A stretch of 37,671 nt of DNA from a virus (Duplodnaviria; Caudoviricetes): the IMG/VR virus record IMGVR_UViG_3300021233_000039, positions 1 through 37,671 of that record. One strand, 5' to 3'. Below the pieces are notes generated by a model. The model saw nothing but the letters and a program-made list of their open reading frames with translations. It did no database searches and was not told the DNA's origin. This document shows, piece by piece, positions 26,868 through 37,671 of the stretch. The position numbers and the translations under genes were made by a program. The first letter of the stretch is position 1. Each line of letters begins with the position of its first letter.

Positions 26868-28394
26868 TTATGCTACGCGGGGGATGTTCCTGCGCAGTGA
26901 CTGCCCCCACTTGTTGCTCGACGCAGAACCAAACGCTCCAGTAATCGCGTCAGATGCAAACGTCAAGCAAAACGCGTCAGCCCTGTCGGGGCTGGCCAGA
27001 CCGCGCTTCCTGATCTCATCCTTGCCCTCAATCTGGATCTTTCCGTTGCTCGTAAACGAATAACGCACAGTGGCCAGCTCCGAAATCAATAGGTCATCCT
27101 TGGGCATGGTGCAGTCGCGCTGCTCCAGCCACGCCTTGGCCTTGTGCCACAACTCGGCCTTCAAGTTCCTATACGTCCCACCCATAGCCGGACTCTCGCT
27201 CACATTAATCCCTCGCGCCGGTAAATTCAACTCGCGCAGCCGGTCAACCACGCCAGCTCCCAAACCAATCGAGTCCACCAATATCTCATGCGGACGCTGG
27301 CTGGGCATCAAAATCTCATACTCAGACACAACCGCACCAGTCAACTGCATCAAATCCAAATTCTTCCACGTCTTAATCGGCTCAAGGACCGCATTGCCCT
27401 GGCGCTTGCACAAAGCAGAACGGTCCGAGCCAAACCTGGCCACATCCAACCCCCACACCAACCTCGCGCTGGGGCTGGGCGTCACGTCCCTCTGTGTGGC
27501 CATCTCCAGCAACTCCATCGGGATCACCGTATCATCATCGGACCTCGGAAACTCACCCAGCACGCGAATCCTGTACGCGTTGCTCTCCTCGCCATAGCGA
27601 GACTTCATCTCCTCAACATACGCATCAGACACCCTGGGCGAGTCCTCGCACGACACCTTCATCGTGATCCAGTCACCCGCCAAACGGTTATGCGTGTCAT
27701 AGAAAAACCCGCTGGAGCGCACAGGATTGCCCAGCAACAACGTCACCGCGCTATGGCCAGACATGGAGCCAGCCGCCGCCTCAAACACCTGCTCCGGTAT
27801 GCCCGACGCCTCGTCAGCCACCAGCATCACGTTATCACTGTGCACACCCTGCAAGGCCTCGGGCTGCTCGGCCCTTGATGTCCTTGCCGAAATAAACGCC
27901 TCATTAGGATGCTCCTTAAACTCAATCCTGTCCTGCTTCACCTCCAATTGCTGCTGCAAGGCATCCGGTAACTGCTTAACCCAGCGCTTCAATTCCGCAA
28001 ACAAGGCGTCATAAAGCTGGCTGCTAGTGGGCGCGGTAAGCACAACCTTCACAGGAAAACGCAAAAACGCATACCAAAGAATCGCCCACGCCGCGCCCGT
28101 TGACTTGCCAACACCGTGGCCAGACCTGACGCTAATCCTGCGCTCGCCTCGCGCAATGTGCATCAAAAACTCCTTCTGCCAGGGGTCGGGCTGCGTATTC
28201 AAAACCTCCTGCACAAAGAGAACAGGGTTGCGGTAATACTTCTTCGCCCACTCAATAAACGGGTTCTTCGCCTGTGCGGGGTCTTGTTGTGTCACATCGG
28301 GGACAGTGGGCTGTTTAGCTGGCACAGTTTTTATTTTTTTTAGGGCGGTGGGCGGTGTCGGGGCAGGGGGTAGGGGGGTCTGGTTAAGGGTCAT
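26868..28394 (-). CDS. terL: Terminase large subunit
   Basis: Walker A SGHGVGKS, Walker B LVADEA, GNP coupling motif, nuclease GLDVAR and SPDRADA. The true start may be downstream of 28394. Confidence 0.95.
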   Translation of the reverse strand: MTLNQTPLPPAPTPPTALKKIKTVPAKQPTVPDVTQQDPAQAKNPFIEWAKKYYRNPVLFVQEVLNTQPDPWQKEFLMHIARGERRISVRSGHGVGKSTGAAWAILWYAFLRFPVKVVLTAPTSSQLYDALFAELKRWVKQLPDALQQQLEVKQDRIEFKEHPNEAFISARTSRAEQPEALQGVHSDNVMLVADEASGIPEQVFEAAAGSMSGHSAVTLLLGNPVRSSGFFYDTHNRLAGDWITMKVSCEDSPRVSDAYVEEMKSRYGEESNAYRIRVLGEFPRSDDDTVIPMELLEMATQRDVTPSPSARLVWGLDVARFGSDRSALCKRQGNAVLEPIKTWKNLDLMQLTGAVVSEYEILMPSQRPHEILVDSIGLGAGVVDRLRELNLPARGINVSESPAMGGTYRNLKAELWHKAKAWLEQRDCTMPKDDLLISELATVRYSFTSNGKIQIEGKDEIRKRGLASPDRADAFCLTFASDAITGAFGSASSNKWGQSLRRNIPRVA

Positions 28395-28529
28395 GGGGAT
28401 ATCTGTTTAGGTGCAGCAGTTGCCGCCCCCGCGAATTGCGCGACGGGGGGGTCGATAACCAGGTGCGCCAGCGCGGCCAGCAGGCGGGAGTTATCCACAG
28501 CGGCCTGTGGATACTGTGGATAAGGTTCG

Positions 28530-28542
28530 TAAGTCGTTGATT
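28530..28542 (-). promoter_or_regulatory. IHF binding site
   Basis: Minus strand AATCAACGACTTA is an exact match to WATCAANNNNTTR. Confidence 0.65.
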
Positions 28543-28586
28543 CCATTGGATTTCTGTCTGTGCGTCTGATTAAATCAATCAAATGT

Positions 28587-28614
28587 ACTTAATACAACAC
28601 CCATTATGTTAAGT
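28587..28614 (+). other. dif-like XerC/XerD recombination site
   Basis: 11-6-11 layout ACTTAATACAA CACCCA TTATGTTAAGT; the right arm is 10/11 identical to the canonical XerD arm TTATGTTAAAT. Confidence 0.8.
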
Positions 28615-28696
28615 TGGACCTTGATTACGCACATGATATCCACAGGCAAAACGCCACGATCGGCCGCTATCCACAGGATTCTGTGCATAACTGGCG

Positions 28697-29137
28697 TCAG
28701 TTGGCAATCTGCGGTGTGGACAACTCGGCATCCTGCACCACTTCGACGTGCCGCAGCGCGTCCAGGCGTAGACCGCCAATGCTGATGTTCACCGCTGGCG
28801 TGCGCTGCTGGGCATAGACGCTAGGCTTCCAGCGCTCTGCGATCCATTGACGCGTCTGGATGCGCACCCGAGCCAGGTTGCTCTCTTCCGGAGAGGCAGA
28901 ATCTGCTATTTCTAGCGTCTCACAGGCCAGTTGATCTGCTGCTCGGGCGCGCGCGCGAGCAATTTTATGCTCGTTTTCGGGCATATCGCACCATATTTCC
29001 AATGCCCTACGCCCTATGCCAAGGTCCTTGCATATGCTTGTCGTTGACTTCCCAGCCTCGAACATGGTCACGATCTGCTCAACAGGTATTGAGTCCAGCA
29101 CCGCGAGATCCTCTCGCTTTTTCTTTTGCCCAGCCAT
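28697..29137 (-). CDS. terS: Terminase small subunit (Sf6 gp1-like)
   Basis: N-terminal HTH; ARAR..A..LA.E.LEIAD...RVRIQTRQWIA..WKP; upstream of terL. Confidence 0.85.
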   Translation of the reverse strand: MAGQKKKREDLAVLDSIPVEQIVTMFEAGKSTTSICKDLGIGRRALEIWCDMPENEHKIARARARAADQLACETLEIADSASPEESNLARVRIQTRQWIAERWKPSVYAQQRTPAVNISIGGLRLDALRHVEVVQDAELSTPQIAN

Positions 29138-30075: not shown

Positions 30076-32061
30076 CTAAAAATCGCCGTCATTTTGATCA
30101 TCATCACCCCAAATCACCCACACCCATGGATCATAAATCTCGATCTTTTTGATCTCTTGGAGCGACAATTTGCTGTCCTTAAACTGCCTGCTAGTCATAG
30201 ATTTGGCCAGGCAGGCATCCTCCCACCGCCCCAAATTGATGCATTTATTACGCTTCCCGTCCACAATTTGCATCTCTCCAAACTCCTTAATTGCCTTGTG
30301 CAGCGCGTCCATCGCCACGGTTTGGTTAGGTCCTGCGCCCTTTCTTGATGGTGGTTTCTTGGTCGGTTTGTGCTGCTCGTCGATGTTTTCCTGGTGCTCT
30401 TTTACCGCCAGAGACAGGTTTTCTCCGAGCCCAAGCGAGCTGTCCTGGCCCTGATTGATGTCTATTTCCACCATCTCAAATCCAAATTTAAGGTTGTCCT
30501 GGCCGTCCTTTTGCTTACTTATGGTGATGATTCCCTGACCTGCCACACCGTCCTTCTTGACTACTTGTTCAAGTTTTAGCAGCTCCAACTGCGTGTCCAC
30601 AGCACCGAGCAGCGAGCTGTGGCCGCGCAATCCTTTGGTCTGGTCCTTGCCACTATGGTGCAAGACCATAAGCGCGCAGTCCAATTTGCGCTGTAGACGT
30701 CCCGCGTTGTGGATAAATGCGCCCATGTCCTGGGAGTCGTTCTCGTTGCCGCCGCCAAACGCCCTGGCCAGCGTGTCAATCTGCACCAGGCGCAGCTCTA
30801 TGCCGGTGCGCTCAATCAGGTTATCTATTGATTCCATGAGCAAATTGAAGTCATCCGCGCTCGATCTCAGGTTGAGCTGGTATCGGATGACGTAGATTTG
30901 CGCCCCATCCCTTGTCTGGTGGTTGATCTTGCACGCCTTGATCCTGGCCCCGATACCGCCGTGACCCTCGCCCGCTATGTATAAGACCGCGCCAGGGTTA
31001 GTTACCTGGTTCCCCATCCACTGGCGTCCCGTGGCCACCGCCTCGGCTATGTCCAGCGCAATAAATGACTTGTAACTGCCTGGTGGCCCATACAGCGCCG
31101 CAAAACCCCTCTCTGGGAGCACGTTCTCGATGATCCAATTTACCGGCTCGTCCTTGATCGTGTCCCACGCCTCGATGTTGAGCAGTTGCGGCGTCGGGTT
31201 ATACGCCTCCTGCTCCGGCTCCTGCAATTGTTCGCTGTTTGTGACTTCAAGCTCTTTCGTGATGACCGGAGCCTGCTTGGCCATCTCCGCAAGCTCCTTC
31301 CTTGTCCCCTTCATGTCGTACACCCACTCGTGTGCGTCGTCACCCTCCACCATGAGATCAAGGTCCAGGTATCGGATCGACTTGGCCACTGGCAGCAAGT
31401 TGGCAATGGCTTTTTTCGCGTACTGCCTGCCTGGCTCGTCGTTGTCTGGTATGACGACCACGTTCGCTCCGGCGAAATACTGCGTGATCTCCTGCGGCCA
31501 ACTGCCTGCGCCCGTGTGCGAAGTCGTGGCTATGGCGCCTATGCTGACCAGCGCGTCGGCTGCCTTCTCGCCCTCCACCAGGTAAATTGCCCTGCCAGCG
31601 GACTTCGCGTCCAGCAGCTCGGGCAGGTTATACGGAACCAGGCGCGTGTCCTTGAGACCCGCGACCCTCTTTCCGCTGGCGTCCACGCGGTGGATTGAGT
31701 ACGTCTTGCCCTTGGCGTCGTTTGTCTTGTATCTGCGCTTGGTAAACAGGATGTCCCCGTCCTCGTTACGATAGACCCACTCCTTCTCCAGGACCGGAGC
31801 CTGGTGCTGGGTAAAGCTGATCTCCTCGCGCTTGGGCGTTGTAGGCAGAAGGTCCCTCGCGCGCACAGCGTCAAATACGTCCCGCTGGTCGCAGCCGCCG
31901 TGGCAATGGAATAGCACCTTGCCGTCTGATTCCGTGATCGACAGGCTTGGGTTCTTGTCCCCGTTTCCCCTGCCGTGGCCAGGCACGGGGCAGGAGGCAA
32001 CCCACTGCCCATTAACCTGCTTGGCGTTACCCAGCGCCTTGGCTATTGTTTCTGTGTCCAT
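30076..32061 (-). CDS. Primase-helicase (Zn-binding + TOPRIM + AAA_25/RepA-like helicase)
   Basis: CPVPGH...D.NPSLS...CHGGC; VEGEKAAD; PDND; Walker A GPPGSYKS; IDTLAR; HHSGK...RGHS. Confidence 0.92.
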   Translation of the reverse strand: MDTETIAKALGNAKQVNGQWVASCPVPGHGRGNGDKNPSLSITESDGKVLFHCHGGCDQRDVFDAVRARDLLPTTPKREEISFTQHQAPVLEKEWVYRNEDGDILFTKRRYKTNDAKGKTYSIHRVDASGKRVAGLKDTRLVPYNLPELLDAKSAGRAIYLVEGEKAADALVSIGAIATTSHTGAGSWPQEITQYFAGANVVVIPDNDEPGRQYAKKAIANLLPVAKSIRYLDLDLMVEGDDAHEWVYDMKGTRKELAEMAKQAPVITKELEVTNSEQLQEPEQEAYNPTPQLLNIEAWDTIKDEPVNWIIENVLPERGFAALYGPPGSYKSFIALDIAEAVATGRQWMGNQVTNPGAVLYIAGEGHGGIGARIKACKINHQTRDGAQIYVIRYQLNLRSSADDFNLLMESIDNLIERTGIELRLVQIDTLARAFGGGNENDSQDMGAFIHNAGRLQRKLDCALMVLHHSGKDQTKGLRGHSSLLGAVDTQLELLKLEQVVKKDGVAGQGIITISKQKDGQDNLKFGFEMVEIDINQGQDSSLGLGENLSLAVKEHQENIDEQHKPTKKPPSRKGAGPNQTVAMDALHKAIKEFGEMQIVDGKRNKCINLGRWEDACLAKSMTSRQFKDSKLSLQEIKKIEIYDPWVWVIWGDDDQNDGDF

Positions 32062-32729: not shown

Positions 32730-33812
32730 TTAAAGGACTGTGCTCTCGCCCAGCCCACGGGATTTAGACAGCGTGAGGCCAGACGATACCTTGCTCGTCA
32801 CGCTATCCAAAACATGTTTCTTGTCCTTGCCCAAAATCTTGTCTGCGGCGGCAGGCGAAATAAGGGACGTCTCGTACAGTTGCGTCTCAGGCACACCCGC
32901 ATCGCGCAGCGCCTGCACCGCGTCGGACTCTTTAGTCCACTGCCTGGTGGCGCGCTTGGGAGCCATCTGCCACCCACGCAGTACACCGCCAGACTCCAGT
33001 GTCTTGGTGGCCTGCTTGCGCAGTGCCGCGATAAAGTCCTCCACCATCTCAGCCTTGTCCAGCAGGTCGGACATCTGCTCTGGCGTGAGCTTGGCCACGT
33101 CGGTGGATACAGGGACCTCGGCCAGTGCCTTGACCTGCGCTGGGCAGATCATCTTGGCGGGGCAGTATTGGCACGCGGCCTTGTCTGGTGTCGGCTGGCT
33201 GCGGCCATCTGCGGCAGATACCACGGCAGGTATCAGCACGTCGTTACGCCAATGGTTTAGCTCGTGGATAGTCATTGTGTGCGTGCGGTTATCGCCCGTC
33301 TGCGGCTGCACGATCGTGAGCCTGATCGTCTCAAAGTCCTTGGCCAGCTTCTTGATGACGCCCAAGGCATAAATCTTCATCTGCGCAGAGTCCGCGTCCA
33401 CCCACTGGCGTCCAGTTTTAAGGTCTGCGATCTCGAGGATTGACTTGTTTAGGTTGTACCCGACCACATCCGCAGTTCCACCGACCTTTGCCAGCAATGT
33501 CTCATACGCGACCCCGTACTGCTCCACCTTAATCGTTCCCAGCTCTGACTGAAGTGCTGCCACTGTACGCACATGAGCCAGGGCAAACTCAGCGTTTTCC
33601 TTGGTGATGACAATGCCCTCAATGGTCTTGCCAATGAAGTCCATCGGGTCCTGGTCCAACTGCCAGCAGGTTTCACTCAGCGCGTGAATGGCTGTGCCTA
33701 TTTTTGCGGCCTCACCCGCTGGCTCGTAGGGCACTTGCAGGGACAGGCGAGCTGATGCTGGGCACGCGATCCAGCGCGCTGCGGATGACGGACGTAGGAT
33801 TAGTTGTTTCAT
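32730..33812 (-). CDS. DUF2800 / Cas4-like PD-(D/E)XK nuclease
   Basis: PSSAARWIACP; GTAIH; GTAD; IADLKTG; QMKIYALG; CQYCPAKMICP. Confidence 0.88.
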   Translation of the reverse strand: MKQLILRPSSAARWIACPASARLSLQVPYEPAGEAAKIGTAIHALSETCWQLDQDPMDFIGKTIEGIVITKENAEFALAHVRTVAALQSELGTIKVEQYGVAYETLLAKVGGTADVVGYNLNKSILEIADLKTGRQWVDADSAQMKIYALGVIKKLAKDFETIRLTIVQPQTGDNRTHTMTIHELNHWRNDVLIPAVVSAADGRSQPTPDKAACQYCPAKMICPAQVKALAEVPVSTDVAKLTPEQMSDLLDKAEMVEDFIAALRKQATKTLESGGVLRGWQMAPKRATRQWTKESDAVQALRDAGVPETQLYETSLISPAAADKILGKDKKHVLDSVTSKVSSGLTLSKSRGLGESTVL

Positions 33813-34006
33813 TCTTGGCTTTCGTTGATGAGTAATTGATACGCCAGGTTGCGCACCTCGGACGTGACGCAGTGGCCAAGGTCCTCAGGGTGCACCAAGC
33901 GCTTTAGGAATTGAGTCTTATCGCGTGATGCATTGCGCTCCTGCTCCAGTTGCGTGGCCAGATATATCGCGTGCTCGCGCAGGGTTTTAAGGTCTTGCTG
34001 GGTCAT
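33809..34006 (-). CDS. Hypothetical protein (65 aa, MTQQDLK...)
   Basis: Internal ATG with ATGA overlaps on both sides. Confidence 0.7.
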   Translation of the reverse strand: MTQQDLKTLREHAIYLATQLEQERNASRDKTQFLKRLVHPEDLGHCVTSEVRNLAYQLLINESQE

Positions 34007-34473
34007 TTGTTTACCTTGAGATACCACGCGCCAATCAGGACAGCATCGGCGCGTCCATCGTCCTTGACGCGTGCAAACGATTTCTGGTGTGATGGATACA
34101 GCTCGCAGGCTCTGGAGCGTGATGCGTCCTTTCCTGCACCACGGCCAATGCCCTTTGTCCACGCGCTGGGCATGACGTAGGTGGAAGGTATGTTGTACGC
34201 CGCCAGGATGCCCTCAATGATTCCCAGGCTGCGCCCAAATGAGAACATTGATGTAACGCCCTGCCCTGGCATTGCAGACACCTTCTCCACCACTACATGG
34301 CGCGGGTCGTACTGAGTGAATATGCCAGCCAGCGCGGACGCTGAAATATGACGCTTGGCCTTGCCGTTGCGCGTCAGCTCGTGCGTTGGCATATCCTCAA
34401 TAGCAATCAAGGCGTCTCCATCAAACACAGCCATGGCGCCATTCAGACCTGGATCTATAGACATCACAATCAT
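34003..34473 (-). CDS. RuvC-like Holliday junction resolvase
   Basis: SIDPG, VVVEKV, FSFG and DGRADAVLI catalytic motifs. Confidence 0.88.
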   Translation of the reverse strand: MIVMSIDPGLNGAMAVFDGDALIAIEDMPTHELTRNGKAKRHISASALAGIFTQYDPRHVVVEKVSAMPGQGVTSMFSFGRSLGIIEGILAAYNIPSTYVMPSAWTKGIGRGAGKDASRSRACELYPSHQKSFARVKDDGRADAVLIGAWYLKVNK

Positions 34474-34679
34474 GCCTGCGCCTTTGCCGCGATCAGCGCG
34501 TCTACGGCCTGCTCCAACTTGGCAATCGAGCTGTACAGCGGGACAGTCTTGCCCGTGCTCCAGCGTGAGAGCTGCGCTGGGTCAACCCCAGCCGCATACG
34601 CGATATCGTTCATCTTGAACCCGTTTTCCTTGGCGCGAAGCCGAATTGCCTCGATTGCCTGCTCAGTTGACGTAATCAT
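34470..34679 (-). CDS. Cro/XRE-family HTH regulator
   Basis: MNDIAYAAGVDPAQLSRWSTGKTVP HTH; first gene of the leftward arm; GGAGG RBS. Confidence 0.85.
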   Translation of the reverse strand: MITSTEQAIEAIRLRAKENGFKMNDIAYAAGVDPAQLSRWSTGKTVPLYSSIAKLEQAVDALIAAKAQA

Positions 34680-37266: not shown

Positions 37267-37622
37267 CAGGCTATAACTTAATTAATGGAGAATCAAAAAT
37301 GGAAAAATCAATTAACACAATTACAGTAAATGGCGTTGACTACGTTCGCGCTGACCAAGTTCAAAAAACACCAGTTGGAAATCGCGCTGTTGTAGTGGTC
37401 GATAGGGGTTGGATTTTTGCGGGTGACATAACAAGGAAAAACGGGCGCATCAAACTTACTCGTGCTGTGCATGTATTCCGTTGGGAATCCATTGGTTTTA
37501 ACGGAATGATTTCTAATCCAAAATCGGTAAAAGTTACGATAAAACCTATGCCTAACGGAGTGGATATTCCAGAAGGAGCCGAAGTGTTTTGCGTACCCGT
37601 TGAAACAAACTGGGGTCTGTAA
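37263..37622 (+). CDS. Sm-like fold phage protein (DUF6948-like)
   Basis: RAVVVVDRGWIFAG...LTRAVHVFRW. An alternative start lies at 37299 after GGAG. Confidence 0.65.
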   Translation: MTGYNLINGESKMEKSINTITVNGVDYVRADQVQKTPVGNRAVVVVDRGWIFAGDITRKNGRIKLTRAVHVFRWESIGFNGMISNPKSVKVTIKPMPNGVDIPEGAEVFCVPVETNWGL

Positions 37623-37671
37623 TGTTTAAGCCTATAGGCGACGGTTACGGCAACGGCTACGGCAACGGCGA
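37570..37671 (+). repeat. Terminal direct repeat copy 2
   Basis: Identical to 78-179; it joins the last ORF to the first ORF through a TAATG overlap. Confidence 0.95.

Follow-up and report, generated by a model that had tools for sequence, protein, structure and literature searches.

The 37,671-nt stretch of DNA analysed here, referred to as the window, is one entire virus record, and a 28-bp sequence resembling a bacterial dif site, at which hosts resolve entangled chromosomes, lies between its two terminase genes. What could a site for the host recombinases XerC and XerD do at such a place, in a tailed phage that appears to encode no recombinase of its own? An exact 102-nt repeat (78-179 = 37570-37671) closes the contig on itself, and the CheckV completeness of the record is 100%, though IMG/VR classes the contig ends as linear. 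The terminal overlap is preceded by 77 extra bases, and a 74-aa ORF of Gly-Tyr/Asp-Gly-Asn repeats (130-354) lies at the closing point.

A dif-like site between terS and terL

The preliminary description had placed a site of 11-6-11 architecture between terS and terL, and it is indeed found there, in a 302-nt gap separating the two genes, both of which lie on the minus strand. The core and the principal genes are:

28587..28614, plus strand: dif-like XerCD core by sequence, ACTTAATACAA CACCCA TTATGTTAAGT, made up of an XerC-type arm (28587-28597), the central hexamer CACCCA (28598-28603) and an XerD-type arm (28604-28614)
26868..28394, minus strand: terminase large subunit terL (phrog_2; 54% identity to phiM5 TerL)
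28697..29137, minus strand: terminase small subunit terS, Sf6-type (phrog_1482, PF20901)
30076..32061, minus strand: primase-helicase, Toprim-like with AAA_25, by family match
32730..33812, minus strand: PD-(D/E)XK exonuclease, DUF2800, by family match
34003..34473, minus strand: RuvC-like Holliday junction resolvase, by family match
34470..34679, minus strand: 69-aa XRE/Cro-like HTH protein lacking an S24 peptidase domain, by family match

Portal, scaffold, capsid and endolysin genes were also recognisable. Six-frame family searches of the window gave no match to a tyrosine or a serine recombinase, upholding the earlier reading of a genome without a recognisable recombinase, and none to S24 peptidase, ParA or ParB (PF00717, PF13614, PF02195) or to the DUF3653 activator. 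The phage had also been described as lacking a CI, and this stands: no S24-domain repressor was found, the one small XRE-type HTH protein being that at 34470-34679. Partition genes together with a repressor for a plasmid prophage state, the hallmarks of a phage-plasmid, were not found. An Rfam scan of the window gave no match, a promoter and terminator scan of the terS-terL gap yielded nothing exceeding chance, and ORFs of 186 and 215 aa received no name from atlas searches.

Taken alone, the XerD arm is unremarkable, with 9 matches in the window at up to two mismatches against 10.0 expected, and the complete two-arm site occurred in none of 40 simulated windows. Beyond this simulation, it is conservation among terL relatives that settles that the site is real. 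From the best 80 of these relatives, the 66 with at least 500 nt upstream were countable; 65 carry the site, compared to 0/66 for a control stretch inside terL, a positive outcome for the suggested check of conservation in the terS-terL gap of relatives. It is oriented one way in 17 of the 65 and the other way in 48. As many of the contigs come from near-identical strains, the counts do not represent independent events.

An exact scan of IMG/VR with the two-arm pattern listed 120 matches out of an estimated total of approximately 230, and two-arm sites adjoin terminase genes in lineages whose TerL is about 95, 75 and 30% identical to that of the window. In a fourth lineage (terL 65%) the arms are different and match another host dif type, present in 4 of the 201 genomes searched from the order. 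The phage family is uncultured, freshwater and widespread, with several hundred contigs in IMG/VR, and the families PF00589 and PF00239 were absent from all 32 long relatives searched, 28 of them at least 90% complete. Comparison of the module with phages and plasmids by blastn returned only weak, arm-level matches. A different arrangement was seen in MW202879 (TerL 71%), which has no site and carries a serine recombinase (resolvase/invertase) directly downstream of terS (L227:966-1634); this single case fits the replacement of one recombination device by another.

The DnaA-box-like array and the predicted virion DNA end

Two features of the gap that the preliminary description omits are a phased array of DnaA-box-like motifs and a likely location inside the terminal repeat. 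The motifs around the core are:

28361..28375, plus strand: two overlapping octamers on the XerC side, pointing at the site, which we take to be KOPS-like
28410..28453, minus strand: C-run/G-run hairpin followed by TGCACC, which aligns with the very end of the terminal repeat in phiM5
28491..28523: three DnaA-box-like 9-mers on the XerC side, at offsets -96, -81 and -72, two of them exact TTATCCACA
28530..28542: exact match, at offset -57, to what we take to be the IHF consensus, and presumably an IHF-like site; the whole window has just three such exact matches
28636..28723: four DnaA-box-like 9-mers on the XerD side, at offsets +49, +80, +95 and +128

The window holds 14 9-mers within one mismatch of TTATCCACA, and seven of them fall within 250 nt around the site, where simulations gave at most 2. 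The accessible text of 10.1101/866236 gives TTATCCACA as the DnaA box consensus. The 9-mer at +128 overlaps the final terS codons, and a weaker one at 28625-28633 corresponds to the +38 position conserved in relatives. Counted over 149 distinct sites, each with two boxes or more (those below that number being dropped), a box lies at +38 in 120, at +79 in 96 and at +94 in 84, and an alternative layout places boxes at -28 and +48. At least two boxes occur within 200 nt in 119 of the 120 listed pattern loci, the exception being a contig that ends 22 nt past the site. When loci were selected on the XerD arm and two boxes only (120 loci, 118 readable), an XerC-type arm was present in 118 of 118. 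The sole countable terL relative with neither site nor boxes (L130, 95% protein identity) has an upstream region that looks AT-shifted compared to its clade.

On the chromosomal side, the four TGTATA sites examined have at most one imperfect box each, and five host-genome sites with other centres (L204, L205, L206, L213 and L224) have none, so non-TGTATA sites do not always carry boxes. The IHF consensus is exact in only 9 of the 149 sites and has one mismatch in 52. KOPS-like octamers number four in the whole window, too few to judge whether they converge as at an FtsK-activated, chromosome-type dif, and the orientation of such octamers near the site is mixed in 118 relatives; polarity toward the site was accordingly rejected as a conserved feature. 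A loose pattern with an XerC-side box was likewise set aside, with 27 of its 30 matches attributable to chance and the other three belonging to the same phage family. Scans for AAAT-ending arms with a box recovered the fourth lineage and many chance matches, as well as a few unrelated dif-like sites on other viral contigs (L386, L399, L406, L425, L430 and L445). These sites are of enterobacterial type and lie amid DnaA-like boxes, with no terminase tied to them, and L430 has two of them approximately 106 nt apart. In eight large viral contigs (L384, L390, L396, L397, L405, L407, L410 and L417), an XerD-arm-like motif followed by a DnaA-like box occurs two or three times, with no XerC-type arm; in three of them, two copies lie 14,709 nt apart.

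The nearest cultured TerL relative (54%) is that of phiM5, for which a direct terminal repeat of 357 bp, covering the 3' part of a terS-like gene, is annotated in GenBank. This repeat stops 35 nt before terL, after a C-run/G-run hairpin and just ahead of TGCACC, and the same arrangement lies downstream of the site in the window, at approximately 28410-28453. By the alignment of the window with phiM5, the repeat boundary is predicted near 28415/28416. The start of the packaged DNA is predicted inside terS (28697..29137). phiM5 lacks both the site and the boxes, and its terS belongs to a different family. Contig ends point to the same region: among the 100 orientable contigs (of 120 listed), 22 have an end in the first 450 nt on the terS side, one of which (L022) is probably mis-oriented, compared to 5.1 expected and 2 in the next bin. 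The excess is weaker in the terL-selected set, where successive 400-nt bins hold 10 and 7 contig ends against 4.4 expected in each, and then 2 and 1. The excess could stem from breaks at the GC hairpin or from mosaic terS genes. Together, the homology with phiM5 and the pile-up of contig ends suggest that the terS-terL gap likely lies inside the terminal repeat.

Host dif sites, satellite-like elements and the question of integration

The arms had been likened to Comamonadaceae dif sites, and alignment confirms the resemblance: TGTATA sites in a Rhodoferax MAG, Comamonas badia and others (L207, L210, L212 and G216) have arms one base off those of the phage, so that 21 of 22 arm bases match these genomes of the presumed host type. 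A scan of 185,579 species genomes with the two-arm pattern gave 13 matches, 4 of them with TGTATA, and a looser pattern matched 68 of 251 genomes of that family, with TGTATA in 57 of 72 places. It is from the arms that we assign a Comamonadaceae-type host, and they may provide a host marker for this uncultured freshwater phage family. The two-arm pattern was also seen inside longer inverted repeats on Spirochaete/Treponema MAG contigs (L202, L203 and L211), twice on one contig. The core has the properties described for xrs in the accessible text of 10.1101/2024.04.05.588136, namely 11-bp arms flanking a centre of 6-8 bp, with the XerD arm more conserved, and a match to the chromosomal dif of the presumed host type. 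Accordingly worded, the gap carries a candidate XerCD recombination site of host type.

The centre, which had been noted to differ from the chromosomal one, mismatches TGTATA at five of six positions, and this argues against the chromosome as partner. Sixteen forms of the hexamer occur among the 120 listed phage sites, none of them TGTATA. For the 118 readable loci chosen by XerD arm and boxes the consensus is YGWCCA, with C at position 5 in 115 and G at position 2 in 107; hexamers starting with TGT form a minority (TGTCCA in 14 of the 118, and TGTTCA in the 75% clade). The host form TGTATA was found in only three viral contigs, none with boxes or genes of the phage family.

At seven host-genome loci (L219, L220, L221, L222, L223, L201 and L209), the core has a centre other than TGTATA and a DnaA-like box lies on its XerC side, at -114 to -138. 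In five of them the core lies 0.3-1.3 kb from the P4-like integrase gene of the element itself, and one is found beside a DUF927 primase. These satellite-like elements of Comamonadaceae-type genomes carry a P4-like integrase, AlpA, a DUF927 primase and RadC. Since the core is internal and beside the elements' own integrase, it is unlikely to be their attachment site; the elements may have this end module in common with the phages, or imitate it. The flank of L221 resembles window positions 28515-28550.

According to the preliminary description, integration at the host dif would part terS from terL and silence the late genes, and could so act as a lysis/lysogeny switch. Such integration is known from inoviruses, from gokushoviruses and from dsDNA vibriophages without tails (accessible text of PMC12715192 and PMC7062461), and the window phage shares with IMEXs (CTXphi, VGJphi, TLCphi, gokushoviruses, dif-type double-jelly-roll prophages and the GGI) the lack of an own integrase and a host-type dif-like site. 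Unlike them, it is a tailed dsDNA phage with no XafT-like gene, its hexamer avoids that of the host, and neither a prophage nor a junction was found. The search of bacterial genomes for hybrid junctions that had been suggested was negative: integration at a host dif was not seen in assembled genomes and contigs, none of the 13 species-genome matches has phage genes within 3 kb, and the one junction type scanned, a host hexamer with a phage-side box, gave three metagenome matches, none phage-related. No TerL above 49% identity was present among 401 genomes of the family, 159 of the genus and 401 of the order (the samples overlap and include many MAGs, and the order search was run without a positive control), and the two genus-level terL matches (47-49%) lie on short contigs that lack both the site and the boxes. 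Of seven contigs that stop next to the site, six run into phage flanks at 85-100%. Moreover, the window has neither a DUF3653 activator nor an S24 repressor, and Vequintavirinae, which appear among lytic E. coli phages in the accessible text of PMC8594841, a text that does not mention Xer, bear the same kind of site.

On the other side of the balance, freshwater host genomes are mostly fragmented MAGs, and the centre, which by its sequence should not pair with the host dif on either side in the window phage, should be able to do so next to the XerC arm in a minority of the relatives. Their TGT-starting hexamers suit a VGJphi-type, XerC-only exchange (accessible text of PMC5357621), so this minority might integrate. 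With no prophage, junction, CI or partition gene found, and with integrase-bearing satellites keeping the module internally, the switch is unsupported, and we regard integration of this type as highly improbable. What stands from the preliminary description is the conserved, host-type site in a phage without a recombinase; its interpretation as a lysis/lysogeny switch is not supported.

Proposed joining of genome ends and competing explanations

Were the gap part of a terminal repeat, every virion DNA would contain two direct copies of the site with the same hexamer. Host XerC and XerD would then recombine phage copy with phage copy, turning the injected linear genome into a circle or, alternatively, creating a concatemer junction between molecules. 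DnaA and IHF would build or activate the synapse, replacing the PepA/ArgR/ArcA or FtsK of known Xer sites. We infer XerCD binding and recombination at the site, as well as the DnaA-IHF synapse, and consider that such joining of end copies into a circle or concatemer has about an even chance of being correct. Since the two copies in one phage share their hexamer, it would be free to drift and the site free to flip, and by mismatching TGTATA it would prevent insertion of the phage into the host chromosome. Copy-with-copy recombination could thus explain the fixed place after terS, the free orientation, the drifting hexamer and the avoidance of TGTATA.

Several observations weigh against end-joining. 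The comparison with phiM5 is imperfect, given that this phage lacks site and boxes and has another terS family. Known accessory-type Xer reactions need supercoiled DNA and sequences on the XerC-arm side (accessible text of 10.1101/2024.04.05.588136 and PMC5357621), whereas injected DNA is linear and most boxes here are on the XerD side. The orientation of KOPS-like octamers is inconsistent among relatives, satellite-like elements without a known terminal repeat also keep the module, and terminal repeats could be joined by the exonuclease that the phage encodes, with no need for XerCD.

The main rival is plasmid-style resolution, in which XerCD would monomerise or unlink replicating circles, with the boxes as accessory sites and the position at the DNA end incidental. 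A core with adjacent fixed protein-binding sites is the layout of cer and psi (accessible text of PMC5357621), and the module shares with these sites of ColE1 and pSC101 the 11-bp arms, a non-chromosomal centre and putative protein-binding sites at a fixed distance from the core. It differs from them in belonging to a tailed phage, in its predicted location in a terminal repeat, and in that the fixed-offset sites recognised are DnaA-box-like and IHF-like and mostly on the XerD side, where cer and psi use ArgR or ArcA with PepA next to the XerC arm. The seven satellite-like loci, five near their own integrase, also speak for resolution, and the phage-encoded Holliday junction resolvase could finish a one-strand exchange. 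However, no ParA/ParB or CI is available for a plasmid state, a lytic phage depends on concatemers, and resolution leaves unexplained why the site directly follows terS in lineages of 95, 75, 65 and 30% terL identity. We judge it unlikely.

A third explanation is that the gap acts as a binding platform, whether as a DnaA/IHF origin, a DnaA-titrating decoy of the datA/DARS type or an end-protecting cap, where XerCD binds and recombination is irrelevant. DnaA boxes and an IHF site beside an AT-rich stretch resemble origins as well as the architecture of datA and DARS, and the phage has its own primase-helicase. The roles of datA and DARS are described in the accessible text of PMC13220808. In T5-like phages the left terminal repeat keeps an array of eight DnaA boxes, phased and conserved, and the accessible text of 10.1101/866236 describes no Xer site there, the role proposed for that array being an injection stop. 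Such a platform is distinctly unlikely in our view, as the hexamer is constrained at positions 5 and 2, both arms track host dif types, the IHF match is rarely exact, and the fixed core-to-box offset implies a joint complex of core and boxes.

Returning to the joining of ends, a parallel is found in P1, where the Cre/loxP system, which serves in circularisation, likewise places a tyrosine-recombinase site for self-recombination near the packaging start. P1 encodes its own recombinase and is a plasmid prophage, whereas the window phage, in which no partition genes were found, would use that of the host. Cre/loxP also resolves multimers, according to the accessible text of PMC10999674. A broader and rather speculative claim, to which we give less credence than to end-joining itself, is that DnaA and IHF form an unrecognised XerCD accessory system, independent of FtsK and supercoiling, by which lytic tailed phages and satellites join linear DNA ends. 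If true, a DnaA-box accessory sequence would be a third mode of Xer recombination control, and tailed phages in general, the common rV5-like coliphages included, would circularise their genomes with the help of host XerCD. Use of XerCD by phages is described for integration by filamentous phages, microviruses and non-tailed dsDNA phages, so a lytic-cycle role in tailed phages would be new. A literature search, with most subscription papers outside it, found no paper on Xer sites in tailed-phage terminal repeats, and none on DnaA as an Xer accessory factor. Even for T5, the accessible text of 10.1101/866236 leaves unsettled by what route the genome of a terminal-repeat phage is closed once injected.

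A search of cultured phages with a dif-like query returned 331 records at E <=10, of which 111 name Escherichia. In Erwinia phage Hena1, a dif-like site (289-316) lies inside an annotated 519-bp repeat present at both ends. Like the window, this phage and two rV5-like sites have host-type arms and non-TGTATA hexamers; unlike it, they have no DnaA boxes, and the boxes may thus do a separate job. These Vequintavirinae are also 135-150 kb myoviruses, and the site is unannotated in their records. E. coli K-12 phages such as CarlMeissner (Bas48) bear the same kind of site, which makes the claim readily testable. The cultured Vequintavirinae with an unannotated dif-like site and an altered hexamer are NC_048828, OR062943 and MZ501054 (L447, L448 and L451). 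Intergenic dif-like sites also occur in OZ195687 (L449), a Vibrio phage of 36 kb that has a ParA-like gene, and in Rheinheimera Barba phages (NC_048188, L450).
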